DNA from: a virus
Taxonomy: Duplodnaviria; Heunggongvirae; Uroviricota; Caudoviricetes
Reading direction: 5' to 3' (one strand)
DNA: 20,048 nt
Virus record (IMG/VR): IMGVR_UViG_2671180847_000011
Shown one piece after another: positions 4,823 through 12,638 of the stretch. Numbering within the stretch: the stretch's first letter is position 1; every line of letters begins with the position of its first letter. The notes beneath the pieces are model-generated. The model saw nothing but the letters and a program-made list of their open reading frames with translations. It searched no databases and had not been told where the DNA came from. Position numbers and translations under genes: made by a program.

Positions 4823-5791
4823 TTAGTAGGTTATTTTTGTTGCGAATACTTCGCCTTTTACGATGGCTGTTATGATATTTTTAGCAACATCTTCTGATGC
4901 GCCAACCTTGATAAGGTCAGCAAGTATTTTGTTATTTACTTCTTTCCGGTGAGCTTTATCCTTTGCTCTACGCTCTTCTTCGTCCTTGATTCTTTTTTCT
5001 TCTGCTATTCTGGCTTGCTCTTTTGCTTCAGCCTCGCGCCGGATTCGTTCAGCCTCCTCCTGTGCTTTTCGGCGTTCTGCTTCAATTGCCGCCTGCTTTT
5101 CTCTTTCAGCTCGTTCTGCTGCCTCTTTTGCTTCGCGCTGTGCTCGTTGCTCGGCTTCAATGCGTTCACGCTCTGCACGTTCCGCTGCGGCCTTAGCTTC
5201 TGCTTCTCGCCTTGCTGCTGCTTCAATTTCGGCTTTTGCCTTTGCTTCGGCTTCAGATCTGGCTTTCTCTTCAGCTTCTCTTTTTAAGCGTTCTTCATGC
5301 TCTCGCTTTTCCTGCTCCGCTTTGAGTCTTGCCTCTTCTCTTTGGCGGTCAAATTCGCGATCCATCAAAATCGCTATTTCATGGTCAGACTCAATTTGCT
5401 TTGCGAGAGCTTCAGCTGCTGCCTTAGCTTCTTCTTCGGCTTTAATCCGCGCCTGCTCCTCCTCATAATCAGTAAGAGGCTGGCGCGCCTTGGCTTTCAG
5501 TTCATCAAGGCGATCACGCACTGTCTTGCGGTTGGCATCAATTAGCTTTGGAATTTCCTTAAGTTCAGCAACAAGGTCTTTGCCAAGACCATCGAGATAT
5601 GTTTTCGTCTGCGCAACTTTATACGCCAGAGAAGCGATCTCCTTTCTGCCCTTTGCCGTTGTGATATCAGGCACAAAGGACATAACTTCACGTTCAACCT
5701 TTTGAAGGATTTCTTCAATCTGGTCGGCAGACTGAAATACAGTCATTGCATTTGCTTTTTCAATAACAACTAAATCTGTTACTTCACTCAT
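4823..5791 (-). CDS. Hypothetical protein with a long E/A/K/R-rich repeat region, 322 aa
   Basis: Globular N- and C-terminal parts flank about 150 residues of EAKAKAEIEAAARREAEAK-type repeats; GGAGGA RBS immediately upstream of the ATG. Confidence 0.65.
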   Translation of the reverse strand: MSEVTDLVVIEKANAMTVFQSADQIEEILQKVEREVMSFVPDITTAKGRKEIASLAYKVAQTKTYLDGLGKDLVAELKEIPKLIDANRKTVRDRLDELKAKARQPLTDYEEEQARIKAEEEAKAAAEALAKQIESDHEIAILMDREFDRQREEARLKAEQEKREHEERLKREAEEKARSEAEAKAKAEIEAAARREAEAKAAAERAERERIEAEQRAQREAKEAAERAEREKQAAIEAERRKAQEEAERIRREAEAKEQARIAEEKRIKDEEERRAKDKAHRKEVNNKILADLIKVGASEDVAKNIITAIVKGEVFATKITY

Positions 5792-6285: not shown

Positions 6286-6909
6286 CTATGCGACCTCGGA
6301 AGGAAGTCCAATCATCTTATTCAAATCTTCTACCCGTAAAGCAGGAAGTGCTGTACTTGCTTTATCTGCTTCTTTTGGTAGCAATTCTTTGCTTTCAGGC
6401 CAAACTTCAATAAGTCGCTTAACTGTTGTGACTGAGTTCAAAGCAGCCCATACATTTGATTCGATATCCTTTTTCTTGGCTTCAAGTTTTTGTTGCAATG
6501 CGCAGATTTCATCAAACCTTTTTGTTATTTCGTGTTCTGCGTCAAACATGCATTTATCTTTTTCTGGGGTGGGGAGCAATATATCTTCACCGTTGCCGTC
6601 TTTTCCGTATGAATGCCAGCCAACCCTTCTTCCAGATACAGTCAGATAAATCGAAGTAGAACGAACATCGCATGAGTAAAATGAACATCCCATCTTCTCA
6701 AGTTCTTCACTTATAGCTGCTAACTTGGATGATAACCGATCCACTTCCTCAGTTTTCTTTTTACCGCCAAACGCAATAACTCTGGCGTCAAGTGCAAGCT
6801 GGTTCTTTAACTTTGTTACTTCTTCAAGTTCAGTGAAAACCCCAGACTTAATTAAAGCGTTACGAGCGATTTCCTCTTTCATTCTCGTAGTTAAGCGGAT
6901 TGATGACAT
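6286..6909 (-). CDS. Hypothetical protein, about 207 aa
   Basis: Start set at the internal ATG at 6909 (MSSIRLTTRMKEE...), which has a GAGAGGAA RBS; the track ORF begins earlier at 6969. No recognisable family. Confidence 0.55.
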   Translation of the reverse strand: MSSIRLTTRMKEEIARNALIKSGVFTELEEVTKLKNQLALDARVIAFGGKKKTEEVDRLSSKLAAISEELEKMGCSFYSCDVRSTSIYLTVSGRRVGWHSYGKDGNGEDILLPTPEKDKCMFDAEHEITKRFDEICALQQKLEAKKKDIESNVWAALNSVTTVKRLIEVWPESKELLPKEADKASTALPALRVEDLNKMIGLPSEVA

Positions 6910-7980: not shown

Positions 7981-8008
7981 GGAAATAAAAAAGGGGCGAA
8001 AGCCCCTT
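7981..8008 (-). terminator. Rho-independent terminator immediately after the repressor gene
   Basis: Stem aaggggc(7991-7997)/gcccctt(8002-8008), loop gaaa; on the minus strand followed by TTTTTTTATTT. Overlaps the repressor stop codon. Confidence 0.65.
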
Positions 8009-8657
8009 AAGGAAGGTTTGCTAGCTTGGCATCAACGACAACGCCAATGATTTTACAGTTCCCATTGATTTCAATCATTGGGTATTGTGGATTGAGTGGT
8101 TTCAGGAATTTTCTACCGGCATCAATAACTAACTTTTTGAATGTCGCCTCGTTTTCTCCTTCAAGTTTGGCGACTACCAACTTTCCATTACGTGGTTCGA
8201 CTTCTGGGTCGACGAGAATAATCATCCCCTCAGGAATACTCAGTCCTGCCGGGGCAGTCATTGAATCGCCTTTAACGTCGAGCCAAAAAGAGTCTTCAGA
8301 ACAATCTACCGTTGTGTCGTACCAGTTATCTATTGCACGCCTATGATATGGCTCTACAGCTTCCATCCAACATCCTGCGCTTACCCAACTAATTAGAGGA
8401 TACGAACCTCTTGGATCATGCCTGCTGTGATAGGCAATGTTTGAAAGACTATCCTCTCCTTTCAACAGGTAATCAGGGGAGCACTGCAAAGCCTTGGCTA
8501 AGGCCAATAGGTTTTCGCCATTGGGCTCAGTTTCAGATCGCTCCCATTGGGAAATAGCAACATTAGACACGCCAACCATCTTGCCAAGGGCAGCCTGCCT
8601 AATCTTGAGTTCTTTTCTGCGAGCGCGAATACGCTCACCCATCAGTTGTGTATTCAT
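8007..8657 (-). CDS. c2: CI-type repressor (P22 C2-like; HTH plus LexA-like S24 autopeptidase), 216 aa
   Basis: N-terminal XRE-type helix-turn-helix (QAALGKMVGVSNVAISQWER); C-terminal domain with an Ala-Gly site (VSAGCW), Ser (GDSM) and Lys (KLVVAKL). Matches P22 C2 over its length as I remember it. Confidence 0.9.
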   Translation of the reverse strand: MNTQLMGERIRARRKELKIRQAALGKMVGVSNVAISQWERSETEPNGENLLALAKALQCSPDYLLKGEDSLSNIAYHSRHDPRGSYPLISWVSAGCWMEAVEPYHRRAIDNWYDTTVDCSEDSFWLDVKGDSMTAPAGLSIPEGMIILVDPEVEPRNGKLVVAKLEGENEATFKKLVIDAGRKFLKPLNPQYPMIEINGNCKIIGVVVDAKLANLP

Positions 8658-8737
8658 AGTTAAGACATCTTAAATAAACTTGACTTAAGATTCCTTTGGT
8701 GGATAATTTAAGTGTTCTTTAATTTCGGAGCGAGTCT
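8658..8737 (+). promoter_or_regulatory. OR operators with pR (and divergent pRM)
   Basis: pR -35 TTGACT (8690-8695), 16-nt spacer, -10 GATAAT (8712-8717), GGAG RBS before cro. P22-type operator palindromes: AGTTAAGACATCTTAAAT (8658-8675) and ATTTAAGTGTTCTTTAAT (8715-8732, overlapping the -10 and start site). Confidence 0.55.
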
Positions 8738-8923
8738 ATGTACAAAAAAGATGTTATTGACCACTTCGGAACCCAGCGTGCTGTTGCTAAAGCACTAGGC
8801 ATTAGCGATGCAGCAGTCTCTCAGTGGAAAGAAGTTATCCCAGAGAAAGACGCCTATCGATTGGAAATCGTTACAGCTGGCGCCCTGAAGTATCAAGAAA
8901 GTGCTTACCGCCAAGCGGCATAA
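8738..8923 (+). CDS. cro: Cro repressor (P22 Cro-like), 61 aa
   Basis: MYKKDVIDHFGTQRAVAKALGISDAAVSQWKEV... is a small HTH protein divergent from the repressor gene; near-identical to P22 Cro from memory. Confidence 0.85.
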   Translation: MYKKDVIDHFGTQRAVAKALGISDAAVSQWKEVIPEKDAYRLEIVTAGALKYQESAYRQAA

Positions 8924-8930
8924 GCAAATT

Positions 8931-8970
8931 GCTCTTTAACAGTTCTGGCCTTTCACCTCTAACCGGGTGA
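8931..8970 (+). promoter_or_regulatory. nutR (boxA plus boxB)
   Basis: GCTCTTTAACA (8931-8941) followed by the hairpin tcacc-tctaaccg-ggtga (8953-8970); same boxA as nutL and a shared CTAACC loop motif. Confidence 0.7.
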
Positions 8971-9038
8971 GCAAACATCAGCGGCAAATCCATTGGGTGT
9001 GCCGCTATAACTCAATATCAATATAGGAAAATTAACAA

Positions 9039-9335
9039 ATGGCACAAGCAAGCTACAGCAAGCCAACACAGCGAGAAATTGATCGCGCTGAAACTGATTT
9101 ACTCATCAACCTGTCAACGCTTACCCAGCGCGGTCTGGCAAAGATGATTGGCTGTCATGAATCGAAGATAAGCAGAACGGACTGGAGATTTATTGCTTCG
9201 GTCTTGTGTGCTTTCGGAATGGCATCAGACATCAGTCCGATTAGCAGGGCTTTTAAGTATGCGCTTGATGAAATCACAAAGAAAAAATCCCCGGCCGCCA
9301 CCGAGGATTTTAAGCAAATTGATATGCAATTCTGA
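9039..9335 (+). CDS. cII: CII-like transcriptional activator (P22 C1-like), 98 aa
   Basis: Homologous to lambda CII in my recollection, including the C-terminal [18 protein letters not shown] (lambda: KKRPAATERSEQIQMEF); sits after cro/nutR. Confidence 0.8.
9048..9061 (-). promoter_or_regulatory. CII-binding direct repeat TTGC-N6-TTGC (pRE-like)
   Basis: Minus strand reads TTGCtgtagcTTGC inside the 5' end of cII, the same location and orientation as lambda pRE. Confidence 0.45.
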
Positions 9336-9367
9336 GGGAATTACTGGATCAATCCACAGGAGTAATT

Positions 9368-9514
9368 ATGACAAAACAACTCAGTCCTTACCAGGACAAA
9401 ATTCACAAACACATACTACGTGATCGCTTCCTGTCCAGCTTCAAGCAGCCTGGTCGATTCCGGGCTGAGTTGGAAAAAGTGAAGCTGATGCAGAAGGAGA
9501 AAGGTCATGAGTAA
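9368..9514 (+). CDS. Small ORF between cII and O, 48 aa (position matches P22 orf48)
   Basis: My own translation ([48 protein letters not shown]); AGGAG RBS 5-6 nt upstream; its 3' end overlaps the O start. Confidence 0.45.
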
Positions 9515-10367
9515 TCTTGCAACCGTAACACATTTAAGGCCTTCACAACGGCCTGTGGAGCGTCGTGTGGCAGAAGTTGAAGATGGTTATACCCGTCTTG
9601 CAAATGCCCTGTATGAAGAGCTTATCGGCGCAGATTTAACGAAAAATCAGAGCAAGGTTGCCCACGCCATATGCCGTAAAACATACGGCTACGGTAAAAA
9701 GATGGATCGCATCTCTGATAGTCAGTTAGCTCAAATTACCAGGCTGCCAAGACAGAAGGTAAACAAGGCCAAGAATGAGCTTATCGCGATGAAGGTTATC
9801 CTTCGCGAAGGCCAGCAAATCGGGCCTAACAAGAACATCGAGGAATGGCAAATAGAAGGGTGTCACTACTCTGGTGATAATGTCACTGCATTGGTGACAA
9901 AAAGTGTCACCAAAACGGTGACAGCGCTGTCACCAAAACAGGGACACACAAAAGAAACTATTACAAAAGAAAAAAGAAATAATAAAAACACTATGTCCGA
10001 AAGTGTTCGGACGGAGTGTGAAAAATCACATGACCGTCACGAAGAAACCGACAAGGCATTCGAGGAAATATTCTGGTGTGCAGGCATGCGGAAAGCCGGG
10101 AAGAAAAACGCAGCTTCGGCATTCAGAACACAGTTCAGGGAATGGCGTAAAACTACCAGGGGTACGGCAAGCGAGTTTGCCACGATGCTGGCAGAAGACA
10201 TCGCATGCAGGAATGGTAAGCAGTTCGGATTCGACAGGTTGTTACCATCGAGCTACCTGAACGGTCAACGCTGGAACGACGAGAAGCCAGAAACTATTCA
10301 ACCACAATCCAAACCATCATCCGCAATCACCGTATCGAAAACTGGCTACGTGTTTTTCGACAGGTGA
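9507..10367 (+). CDS. O: Replication initiator, lambda O-like, 286 aa
   Basis: N-terminal domain alignable to lambda O ([14 protein letters not shown]...[11 protein letters not shown]...[25 protein letters not shown]); the origin iterons lie inside the gene. Confidence 0.85.
9861..9990 (+). repeat. Replication origin: four 19-bp iterons plus A+T-rich region
   Basis: Iterons TGTCAC-N7-(G)GTGACA/GGGACA starting at 9861, 9881, 9905 and 9928, each an internal inverted repeat, followed by an A/T-rich stretch at about 9951-9990. Same architecture as ori-lambda within O. Confidence 0.65.
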
Positions 10368-10370
10368 ACC

Positions 10371-10478
10371 ATGAAATCAAAAATCAAATCGCTACTGGTC
10401 GCTGGTTATAACCACGGCTGGTTAAGTATTTCGTTTGTCGATTTCTGGTTTAAAAATCTCAATCTGAGGGAATCATGA
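10371..10478 (+). CDS. Small ORF between O and the helicase gene, 35 aa
   Basis: My own translation (MKSKIKSLLVAGYNHGWLSISFVDFWFKNLNLRES); AGGTGA upstream; stop overlaps the helicase ATG (ATGA). May instead be a non-coding linker. Confidence 0.3.
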   Translation: MKSKIKSLLVAGYNHGWLSISFVDFWFKNLNLRES

Positions 10479-12355
10479 CGCCAAGTGAACTTAGCGACCT
10501 GCTTTGGGCGCAGGTTGACAGGGTGGCTCCGCACCTGTTGCCAAACGGCAAGAAAGAGGGGCATGAGTGGGTTGCCGGTAACGTCAATGGTGACAAGGGA
10601 AACAGCCTTAAGGTCAACCTTAGCGGCAAGAAAAAATGGGCTGATTTCGCTGAGGGAGACGGCGGTGACATGCTTGATTTGTGGATGGCATGTCGTGGAA
10701 TTAACCTGCATCAGGCTATGCAGGAAGCGAAAGCATTTCTCGGTATCAAGGATGACGATCACCATTTCGATGCCAAACGTGAGAAAAAATTCTCCAGACC
10801 TGATCGCAAGAAAATCGCCCGCTACGTTACCAGAACAGAATCCCATCTTGAGTACCTGCAATCGCGTGGCATATCGCCAGAAGTCGTAAAGCGCTACGAG
10901 GTTGTCAGCGGCAAGGTGTGGAATGGAGAACGAGAACTTGATGCACTGGTGCTTCCGTACAAACGCGATGGTGAGTTGTTGCAGGTCAAGCGAATCAGCA
11001 CTGAGCGCCCGGACGGGAAGAAAGTCATTATGGCAGAAGGTGATTGCGAACCTTGTCTGTTCGGATGGCAGGCTCTGGACGCTGGCGTAAGGGCGGTTGT
11101 ACTTTGCGAAGGCGAAATTGATTGTATGAGCTATGCGCAATACGGCATCTCGGCGTTATCCGTGCCGTTTGGTGGCGGGAAAGGCGCTAAGCAACAGTGG
11201 ATTGAGTTTGAGTATCACAACCTCGACAGGTTTGAGGAAATATTCATCTCGATGGACGTTGATGATGTTGGTCGTGAAGCCGCAAGGGAAATCGCAAGCC
11301 GACTCGGTGAACATCGTTGCCGTCTTGTTACTCTGCCGTACAAAGACATCAACGAATGCCTGATGAACGGTGTTACCGAGGATGAAATCTGGCAGTACAT
11401 CGGCACGGCATCCTACTTCGATCCTGAAGAACTCTACAGCGCGCGAGAGTTTTACCAGGACACTATCAACGCTTTCTACGGCAAGCAGCAGTATCTGTTT
11501 AATCCACCGTGGGAATCTCTGGCAGATAAATTCCAGTTCCGTGAGGCCGAGTTGACGCTGGTCAATGGTGTGAACGGTCACGGAAAAACGGAGGTTGTCG
11601 GGCATATGGCACTTGAGGCAATGCGTCAGGGTGTGAAGACATGCATCGCGTCACTTGAGCTGAAGCCTGGTATTCTCCTTAAGCGCCTTACCCGTCAGGC
11701 GACGTGCTGCAAGATGCCGCCAGTGCTGGAAATTGACTCTGCATTTAAATTTTATGACGAAAGACTTTGGGTGTTTGGCCTGACCGGAACGGCGAAAGCC
11801 GATAGGCTGATCGAAATATTCGACTACGCTCGCCGCCGATACGGGATCCAGTTATTCATCATCGACAGCCTGATGAAATGTGGCATAGGCGACGATGACT
11901 ATAACGGGCAGAAGGCGTTTGTTGACTCGATTTGCGACTTCAAAAACAAAACAAACTCCCACGTCATTCTCGTTACTCACTCCAGAAAAGGAGACAGCGA
12001 AGAAAAACCAACCGGGAAAATGGACGTAAAAGGCTCTGGAGCGATAACAGACCTGACAGACAACCTTTTCATCATCTGGCGTAACAAGGCTCGCGAGAGA
12101 GCGTTACAGAGGGTTCAGAGTGGTGAAAAGATGTCAGAGAAGGACGAACAGCTACTGGCATCTCCGGCATCTGTTTTGATGCTTGAAAAACAACGTAACG
12201 GCGAAGGTTGGGAAGGTGGTGTCCCGTTGTTCCTTGACGAGCAATCGCACCAGTTCCTGCAACTTGAATCAGGATCGCCATATAGCTACATCGCCAATAT
12301 GCCGAAATCGGAATATGACGAGGCGTGGCGACAGGAAAACGTGACGGAGTATTAA
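10475..12355 (+). CDS. Bifunctional primase-helicase (Toprim domain plus DnaB-like ATPase), 626 aa
   Basis: Toprim-like acidic motifs (VLCEGEIDCMSYAQ; DVDDVGREAA) in the N-terminal half; Walker A GVNGHGKT and Walker B LFIIDSLMK in the C-terminal half. Occupies the lambda P position. Confidence 0.8.
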   Translation: MTPSELSDLLWAQVDRVAPHLLPNGKKEGHEWVAGNVNGDKGNSLKVNLSGKKKWADFAEGDGGDMLDLWMACRGINLHQAMQEAKAFLGIKDDDHHFDAKREKKFSRPDRKKIARYVTRTESHLEYLQSRGISPEVVKRYEVVSGKVWNGERELDALVLPYKRDGELLQVKRISTERPDGKKVIMAEGDCEPCLFGWQALDAGVRAVVLCEGEIDCMSYAQYGISALSVPFGGGKGAKQQWIEFEYHNLDRFEEIFISMDVDDVGREAAREIASRLGEHRCRLVTLPYKDINECLMNGVTEDEIWQYIGTASYFDPEELYSAREFYQDTINAFYGKQQYLFNPPWESLADKFQFREAELTLVNGVNGHGKTEVVGHMALEAMRQGVKTCIASLELKPGILLKRLTRQATCCKMPPVLEIDSAFKFYDERLWVFGLTGTAKADRLIEIFDYARRRYGIQLFIIDSLMKCGIGDDDYNGQKAFVDSICDFKNKTNSHVILVTHSRKGDSEEKPTGKMDVKGSGAITDLTDNLFIIWRNKARERALQRVQSGEKMSEKDEQLLASPASVLMLEKQRNGEGWEGGVPLFLDEQSHQFLQLESGSPYSYIANMPKSEYDEAWRQENVTEY

Positions 12356-12384
12356 ATGACCATCTACATCACTGAGCTAATAAC

Positions 12385-12417
12385 AGGCCTGCTGGTAATC
12401 GCAGGCCTTTTTATTTG
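12385..12417 (+). terminator. Rho-independent terminator (tR2-like) after the replication genes
   Basis: Stem aggcctgc(12385-12392)/gcaggcct(12401-12408), 8-nt loop, then TTTTATTTG. Confidence 0.6.
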
Positions 12418-12431
12418 GGGGAGAGTAAATC

Positions 12432-12638
12432 GTGGCTGAGTTTATGCTCGTCGCATTCAAATGCGTTGGCGTTGGATGGATTCTTCTGACGTTTTTTATT
12501 GTTCTGCATAGCTACATTCGTCTTGTTAATGACGGTAAAGACCCATGGTATACGTTGTTTGGCGCTGCATTTGTCTGGGTGATTATCGGTGTTATGCCTG
12601 TCGCTGTAGCAAAAATGGCGTGGCGTTTTGTGAGTTGA
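12432..12638 (+). CDS. Small membrane protein, 68 aa
   Basis: GTG start with GGGGGAGAG RBS; two hydrophobic helices (VAFKCVGVGWILLTFFIVL; LFGAAFVWVIIGVMPVAVA). Confidence 0.5.
   Translation: MAEFMLVAFKCVGVGWILLTFFIVLHSYIRLVNDGKDPWYTLFGAAFVWVIIGVMPVAVAKMAWRFVS

Follow-up and report, generated by a model that had tools for sequence, protein, structure and literature searches.

In bacteriophage lambda, the replication origin lies inside the initiator gene O, where four 19-bp iterons of dyad symmetry (annotated in NC_001416 at 39034, 39054, 39078 and 39101, i.e. spaced 20, 24 and 23 bp apart) are followed by an A-rich block. The genetics of lambda/phi80 and lambda/82 hybrid phages assigned origin specificity to the N-terminus of O and partner specificity to its C-terminus, the partner of lambda O being the P protein together with host DnaB. 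The N-terminal 162 residues of lambda O bind the origin (Wickner and Zahn (1986), as cited in PMC2629481), and other lambdoid O-type origins, those of the Stx phages included, have been described (PMC8022706, PMC7466680). In-gene iterons, an A-rich block and a Phage_rep_O N-terminal domain are found in P22 gene 18, HK97/HK446, phi80 gene 15, L gene 18, Stx 933W and P27, and ES18 carries four lambda-type iterons (ATCCCTCAAAAYGAGGGA) annotated as a rep_origin 'similar to lambda ori'. Note that the P-type loader defines lambda proper and not the wider kind of origin, because the partner varies, as in P22 (gp12) and ES18 (gp61).

The locus reported here lies in a mosaic P22-like lambdoid genome, of which the best single phage record covers at most 51%; the whole 20,048-bp stretch of DNA that was analyzed is hereafter called the window, and positions refer to it. 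The locus resembles the lambda origin in its position inside an O-type gene (the array starts 354 nt into the gene, vs 348 nt in lambda), in its four 19-bp dyad-symmetric iterons, whose 20/24/23 spacing is that of lambda, and in the homologous A-rich block that follows them. The N-terminal domains of the two initiators, both Phage_rep_O, are about 53% identical. The differences concern (i) the arms of the iterons, TGTCAC/GTGACA instead of TCCCTC/GAGGGA; (ii) the start of the recognition helix, LPRQKVN instead of LPVKRCN; (iii) the C-terminal domain of O, which is unrelated to that of lambda; (iv) the partner, a phage primase-helicase instead of P and host DnaB; and (v) the palindrome on the right-hand side, which differs from that of lambda. 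The right-hand part of the module is that of ES18, epsilon34 and g341c, which have the C-terminal half of O in common with the window (93–95% DNA identity from nucleotide 428 of the gene). The ES18 module, whose O-like protein is gp59, also shares the right-hand palindrome, a 35-aa ORF (gp60) and the 626-aa primase-helicase (gp61). The lambda-type iterons of ES18 sit at the exact position of the window's array, but its N-terminal domain is of the lambda type, whereas that of the window is of the Sf101 type and goes with TGTCAC iterons. In Sf101, mEp043, SEN22 and vB_EcoP-720R6, the O gene and the origin are 98.6–99.9% identical to those of the window, with essentially no differences.

Four iterons within the O-type gene

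A search of the whole 20,048-bp window for TGTCACNNNNNNNGTGACA with at most one mismatch returned exactly four sites, all on the + strand:

Iteron 1: 9861–9879, + strand; TGTCACTACTCTGGTGATA, one mismatch, in the right arm; codon phase 0
Iteron 2: 9881–9899, + strand; TGTCACTGCATTGGTGACA, no mismatch, perfect dyad; codon phase 2
Iteron 3: 9905–9923, + strand; TGTCACCAAAACGGTGACA, no mismatch, perfect dyad, CAAAAC center as in lambda; codon phase 2
Iteron 4: 9928–9946, + strand; TGTCACCAAAACAGGGACA, one mismatch, in the right arm; codon phase 1

The mean number of TGTCAC-N7-GTGACA sites expected by chance is 0.02, and none of 100 dinucleotide-preserving shuffles contained four or more sites. 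A previous, sequence-only reading of this DNA had reported four 19-bp repeats starting at 9861, 9881, 9905 and 9928, spaced 20–24 bp apart, each an inverted repeat, with an A/T-rich block behind them. The pattern search bears out the repeats and their spacing, the measured start-to-start distances being 20, 24 and 23 bp, and the block is there as well (44 nt, 9947–9990, with 31 A and 5 T). As regards symmetry, the description fits the central iterons 2 and 3, which are the only perfect inverted repeats, but has to be corrected for the outer iterons 1 and 4, which deviate by one right-arm base each. The central CAAAAC tract is present in iterons 3 and 4 only, whereas in lambda the center is A-rich in every one of the four iterons, so that intrinsic bending may differ from that of lambda. 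Besides the iterons, no other family of closely spaced direct repeats was found in the replication module (8600–12600), and no DnaA box (TTATNCACA) was found in the whole window.

The array is flanked on its right by two further elements:

A-rich block with purine asymmetry, presumed to be the DNA unwinding element: 9947–9990, + strand; low GC content, low stability, homology to lambda and ES18
Palindrome flanking the A/T block on the right: 9988–10019, no strand; arms 9988–10001 and 10006–10019, 86% complementary, part of the ES18-type right-hand module

The 44 nt of the A-rich block comprise 31 A, 5 T, 3 G and 5 C, and its GC fraction is 0.15–0.28. More specifically, in the 40-mer 9950–9989 the GC content is 15% and purines make up 80% of the + strand; its nearest-neighbor ΔG is −40.7 kcal/mol vs a window mean of −53.9 kcal/mol (sd 3.7), i.e. 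3.5 sd above the mean. Only one 40-mer of the window is less stable, and none within the gene is. The sequence after iteron 4, ACACAAAAGA(A/C)ACTATTACAAAAGAAAAAAGAAA, is identical to that of lambda at 34 of 35 positions, as read from the alignment; because of this identity, the block can be considered homologous to that of lambda and not merely similar in composition. The right-hand palindrome is common to the window and ES18 and is not that of lambda or PhiR12_1.

The O-type initiator and its neighborhood

The array lies inside an ORF that encodes an O-type initiator, whose parts are the following:

O-type replication initiator gene, 286 aa, containing the origin: 9507–10367, + strand; Pfam PF04492, TIGR01610
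N-terminal winged-helix DNA-binding domain (predicted), residues 1–118: 9507–9860, + strand; AlphaFold2 and Foldseek, predicted recognition helix at residues 82–94
C-terminal domain of the ES18 type, about residues 157–286, presumed to recruit the partner: 9975–10367, + strand; phrog_33384, phrog_270

Residues 20–114 match Pfam PF04492 Phage_rep_O (E 1e-37), the protein also matches TIGR01610 phage_O_Nterm (E 2e-30), and the gene shares 99.9% identity with its counterpart in phage Sf101, annotated 'replication protein O'. The array begins 354 nt into the ORF, right after the Phage_rep_O match, and separates the regions coding for the N- and C-terminal domains. Searching the PDB by sequence gave no solved structure related to O. 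Single-sequence AlphaFold2 modeling of the whole protein gave a mean pLDDT of only 42.8, but modeling of the N-terminal 157 residues with a 66-sequence alignment yielded a pLDDT of 70–91 for residues 28–110, with helices at 46–60, 71–78 and 82–94 and a hairpin at 98–107. The linker for which the iterons and the A/T block code (residues 119–157) is V-T-rich and has a pLDDT of about 41–55. The top Foldseek matches of the N-terminal model in the PDB are all winged-helix DNA binders (CRP/FNR, MarR/SlyA and GntR; E 0.014–0.07); as none reaches an E-value of 0.001 or lower, these matches were used for the fold class alone. Altogether, the model suggests that the N-terminal domain of O has a winged-helix topology.

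The genes and signals around the initiator gene are arranged as follows:

P22-c2-like repressor: 8007–8657, − strand; upstream of the O gene
pR-like promoter upstream of cro: 8680–8707, + strand; sigma-70 consensus match (10/12), placed as in P22 and lambda
P22-type cro: 8738–8923; upstream of the O gene
cII/c1 homologue: 9039–9335; upstream of the O gene
oop-like terminator: 9311–9284, − strand; from a consensus scan
35-aa ORF between the O and primase-helicase genes, counterpart of ES18 gp60: 10371–10478, + strand; phrog_21848, E 4e-26
626-aa primase-helicase (Toprim + DnaB-family ATPase), presumed helicase loaded at the origin: 10475–12355, + strand

A lambda-P-type loader is absent downstream of O, where the gene encodes a Toprim + DnaB-like primase-helicase, as in ES18. 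This 626-aa protein contains the Pfam domains Toprim_2, AAA_25 and DnaB_C and belongs to phrog_239, 'DNA primase/helicase' (E 2e-171); the annotation of its ES18 relative, gp61, describes that protein as T7 gene 4-like.

The iterons go with the N-terminal domain, the partner gene with the C-terminal domain

Scanning IMG/VR for two adjacent perfect iterons retrieved at least 120 loci. Among the matches listed, the motif lies inside an O-like ORF in 109 of 120 loci, and in all 109 the N-terminal domain is nearest to the Sf101 reference, the Proteus V3 reference or, in one case, the phiEt88 reference, with roughly 65–100% identity; the lambda and P22 types are the nearest in none of the 109. The remaining 11 listed IMG/VR loci bear the TGTCAC motif outside O genes, and in unrelated phages this half-site turns up in arrays between genes. 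These counts are to be read as numbers of sequences and not of independent events, since many of the loci are near-identical prophages. The matches listed comprise 88 distinct arrays, 81 with four iterons, six with six and one with three, and the 20, 24 and 23 spacings recur across these related arrays. Six-iteron variants thus occur in the TGTCAC clade as they do in Stx phages. The reverse test gave the same association: in 80 of 80 IMG/VR loci whose N-terminal domain is at least 99% identical to that of the window, the array is found at the same offset. In the phage collection, 13 records contain this N-terminal domain and 13 the ori segment at 99% identity or more, the latter including Sf101, mEp043, SEN22 and vB_EcoP-720R6. 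Proteus phage vB_BPM-V3 is a further match in that collection, with four TGTCAC iterons and an N-terminal domain about 71% identical.

The C-terminal half of the protein behaves differently. At least four types of C-terminal domain (ES18, lambda, P22 and phiEt88) are found in iteron-bearing O ORFs, and some of these domains match no reference. Each of the three common types is followed by its own kind of partner gene among the matches listed: a primase-helicase after the ES18-type domain (32 of 32 loci), a gp12-like DnaB-type helicase after the P22-type domain (20 of 20) and P after the lambda-type domain (13 of 13). The exchange is well illustrated by the PhiR12 phages, in which megablast aligned nucleotides 1–473 of the gene (the N-terminal domain, the iterons and most of the A/T block) at 99.8% identity: PhiR12_1 has the Sf101-type N-terminal domain and TGTCAC iterons, then a lambda-type O C-terminal domain and a P gene. 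A natural two-by-two combination results, the Sf101-type N-terminal domain with TGTCAC iterons occurring both with the lambda-type C-terminal domain and P (PhiR12_1) and with the ES18-type C-terminal domain and primase-helicase (the window), and the lambda-type N-terminal domain with lambda iterons likewise occurring with both types of C-terminal domain (lambda and ES18). This two-way covariation of iterons and N-terminal domain, along with the natural domain-swap chimeras, lends support to the proposal, put forward from the sequence before, that the iterons would define the specificity of the initiator.

The segment LPRQKVN (residues 80–86, comprising a turn and the start of the predicted recognition helix) shows no variation among 56 distinct TGTCAC-linked N-terminal domains of 61–99% identity, and it is replaced in the O types that go with other iterons, namely lambda, P22, HK446, PhiR26_1, phi80 and phiEt88. 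The pairs are:

Window and Proteus V3: helix LPRQKVN; half-sites TGTCAC / GTGACA
phiEt88: helix ISRSKAN; half-sites TGTTAC / GTAACA
lambda: helix LPVKRCN; half-sites TCCCTC / GAGGGA
P22: helix MAPTKCS; half-sites TTTACC / GGTAAA
PhiR26_1: helix ILPHKCS; half-sites TTTACC / GGTAAA
HK446: helix IHHTHVC; half-sites TTAGCT / AGCTAA
phi80: helix LSDTHVS; half-sites TTCCCG / CGGGAA

The half-site of phiEt88 differs from that of the window by a symmetric one-base change in both arms, as expected for a dimer reading two half-sites. The iteron half-site of phage L gene 18, TGTCCAACGGA, is also unlike that of the window. Two other assignments were considered and rejected: the iterons are not of the phi80 type, the sites of phi80 gp15 being TTCCCGAAAACGGGAA, and the array is not a plasmid-type iteron origin (RepA/RepE/Pi), as its iterons are palindromic and not non-palindromic direct repeats, the window lacks a DnaA box, and the initiator is Phage_rep_O and not a plasmid Rep.

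Selection on the DNA and alternative readings of the array

Conservation was assessed on 75 distinct four-iteron arrays, in which iterons 1 and 4 had been filtered loosely (at most three mismatches in 12); the corresponding figures for iterons 2 and 3 are circular, because the scan required two perfect adjacent iterons. In these arrays, among the matches listed, the left arm is 99–100% conserved in both iteron 1 and iteron 4, wobble positions included, vs a wobble identity of 61.5% in the 120 coding nucleotides that immediately precede the array, whereas the 7-nt iteron centers vary like ordinary coding sequence. Within the gene, the iterons begin at offsets 354, 374, 398 and 421, corresponding to codon phases 0, 2, 2 and 1. 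The use of three codon phases and the conservation at wobble positions indicate that selection acts on the DNA. On this ground, it is extremely unlikely that the repeats are the by-product of a repeated linker peptide and have no function as DNA, even if residues 119–157 form a V-T-rich linker of low model confidence in which in-frame reading of GTCAC and GTGACA yields Val-Thr. Four copies in three phases leave no single peptide unit, every copy forms a palindrome in the DNA, both the centers and the encoded residues vary while the arms are conserved at wobble positions, and lambda, ES18, P22, HK446, phi80 and PhiR26_1 hold different palindromes at the same place. Since one DNA unit is translated in three frames, the V-T-rich peptide appears as a consequence of the repeats and not as their cause. 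Conservation extends beyond the arms: iteron 4 and the start of the A/T block are near-invariant in the same 75 arrays (among the matches listed), and the block is conserved beyond coding constraint. Conservation then falls to about 49% past roughly position 9990, a drop that marks a module boundary, and the crossover points between modules fall inside the conserved A/T block.

A function of the DNA other than replication initiation has also to be weighed. Dyad-symmetric 19-mers are typical of operators, the half-site recurs in the intergenic arrays of unrelated phages mentioned above, and a consensus scan returned three minus-strand terminator-like hairpins (9935–9916, 9923–9905 and 10012–9995), so that the palindromes might be operators of another regulator, involved in immunity or in the establishment of lysogeny, or antisense terminators. 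We consider this very unlikely: the terminator-like hits arise because a palindrome adjoins an A-run, and the array stays with the O N-terminal domain, with whose clade it covaries both ways, while the immunity genes change, the window having P22-type c2 and cro and the repressor and cro of Sf101 and PhiR12_1 differing in length. The array might otherwise be a true O-binding site that serves copy-number control, exclusion or incompatibility by titration or handcuffing, replication starting elsewhere. Some primase-helicases of other elements, e.g. P4 alpha, recognize their own origins, which speaks for such an arrangement. Cloned lambda iterons, moreover, inhibit the replication of rep-lambda phages, an effect that needs ITN3-4 and not the A/T block (PMC3349717). 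Against it stand the lack of any other iteron-like family in 8600–12600, the homologous A/T unwinding block, which abuts iteron 4 and is more conserved than coding would require, and the tracking of the primase-helicase by the C-terminal domain type in 32 of 32 loci (among the matches listed), which argues that both act together at the site of the array. Binding without initiation at this site is thus quite unlikely as well. The array is very probably the site at which theta replication of a lambdoid (P22-like) phage or prophage begins, an origin that follows the ori-lambda plan; the in-gene position, the four dyads at 20/24/23 and the A-rich block homologous to that of lambda, all read from sequence comparison, back the earlier assignment to the ori-lambda architecture.

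Discussion

By analogy with the biochemistry of lambda and Stx-phage origins (summarized in PMC7466680 and PMC3349717), binding, O-some formation, unwinding, helicase recruitment and firing could proceed as follows. Dimers of the O-type initiator would bind the four iterons through their N-terminal winged-helix domain, the recognition helix (about residues 82–94) reading the TGTCAC half-sites; the four bound dimers would form an O-some and distort the DNA; the strain exerted by the O-some would melt the adjoining A-rich block (9947–9990); and the C-terminal domain of O would recruit the 626-aa primase-helicase of the phage itself, and not lambda P and host DnaB. A transcript from the pR-like promoter would traverse the origin, so that rightward transcription probably crosses it, as in lambda. 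The hand-off to the primase-helicase is the least secure step of this scheme, and we know of no biochemical work on the O/primase-helicase pairing of the ES18-type module.

One can go a step further and picture the O N-terminal domain and the TGTCAC iterons as a self-contained and portable cassette of specificity, in which the invariant helix reads the half-site by a simple code and which hands the origin off to a phage primase-helicase. Two comparisons point to a simple code: phiEt88, the nearest clade, combines RSKANIAK with TGTTAC/GTAACA, and P22 and PhiR26_1 share both P-x-K-C-S-x-A-K and TTTACC/GGTAAA. Taken as a whole, we regard this picture as tentative, with the balance tilting slightly against it.

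The element itself is a textbook lambda-style origin, and the understanding of lambdoid replication is unchanged by it. Its iteron sequence, TGTCAC-N7-GTGACA, is widespread among prophages of enterobacteria. As to the iteron type, TGTCAC iterons were compared with those of lambda, phi80, P22, HK97/HK446 and L, and are distinct from all of them. A literature search for the TGTCAC-type iteron string found no mention, the paper on the Sf101 genome is silent on the origin, and a search on the PhiR12 phages with their hybrid O gene found nothing relevant. The type is therefore new only in the sense that no description was found, and the pre-1990 literature on phage 82 or 21 may hold one.

The main practical value of the finding lies in annotation. 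Of 5426 complete E. coli genomes, 175 (about 3%) contain the ori segment, in prophages and always under 'replication protein', and none of the related GenBank/RefSeq records examined has an origin annotated at this site. The locus also adds a clean case to the classical two-module picture of O, with a single clade of N-terminal domains and iterons joined to at least four helicase-recruitment domains. The pairs of iterons and helices listed here (lambda, phi80, P22/PhiR26_1, HK446, phiEt88 and Sf101) could guide experiments on initiator specificity, as well as work on replication-based exclusion between co-resident prophages. If the portable-cassette reading is true, initiation would require none of host DnaB, DnaC and DnaG, and the O modules of lambdoid phages would supply natural pairs of origin and initiator that are orthogonal to one another, as well as a tractable model of the evolution of initiator specificity.

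Genes flanking the probable origin

The immunity region of the window (8007–9335) is of the P22 type, with a 216-aa c2-like repressor and a 61-aa P22 Cro. The origin of the window also occurs in Sf101 and PhiR12_1, together with repressor and cro genes whose lengths differ from those here; such mosaicism, with a junction between cII and O, is typical of lambdoid phages. The O gene itself is flanked by two small ORFs:

9368–9514, plus strand: 48-aa ORF, overlapping the start of O by 8 nt
10371–10478, plus strand: conserved 35-aa ORF between the O and primase–helicase genes (phrog_21848, E 4e-26)

The upstream ORF, which has the same length and position as orf48 of P22, is labelled 'tail protein' by both PHROG 1913 and RefSeq; this label looks wrong because the 48-aa gene sits in the early right operon. 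The downstream ORF, whose counterpart in ES18 is gp60, has a stop codon that overlaps the start of the primase–helicase gene, and it may be part of the replication module.

Elsewhere in the window, the hexamer GCTTCT is repeated about 10 times in an array (5196–5254), and there is a 20-nt tandem duplication (6655–6693); no 40-mer in the window is less stable than the one at 296–335 (GC 0.15).

Iterons and related palindromes

A consensus scan called three hairpins that run antisense to the O gene, have T-runs and resemble intrinsic terminators:

9905–9923, minus strand: terminator-like hairpin
9916–9935, minus strand: terminator-like hairpin
9995–10012, minus strand: terminator-like hairpin

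They arise from palindromes lying next to the A-run (those of the iterons and the one on the right) and are probably by-products of the origin structure.

The number of iterons varies within this origin type: among the matches listed, five loci (L010, L018, L024, L050 and L057) contain six iterons instead of four, the two additional TGTCAC-type copies being located on the upstream side with spacings of 24 and 18. These loci parallel the Stx phages 933W and P27, which differ from lambda in having six-iteron origins. The nearest clade with a different iteron is represented by the O protein of Erwinia phage phiEt88 (gene at 1501–2592 of locus L006), the N-domain of which displays 59.5% identity. 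In the phiEt88 iteron, TGTTAC-N7-GTAACA, one base is changed symmetrically in both half-sites, and the predicted recognition helix reads RSKANIAK, as compared with RQKVNKAK in the O protein of the window. The phiEt88 difference is a candidate for a minimal specificity switch.

Finally, tandem TGTCAC-N7-GTGACA palindromes (3–5 copies, period of about 21–23 bp) are also present outside any O-like ORF among the IMG/VR matches listed, namely in L033, L035, L055, L056, L059 and L069, as well as in L075, L097, L101, L103 and L110. The contigs that host these arrays belong to apparently unrelated phages, with GC contents ranging from 0.38 to 0.59. The TGTCAC/GTGACA half-site seems to be reused by other DNA-binding proteins or origins.
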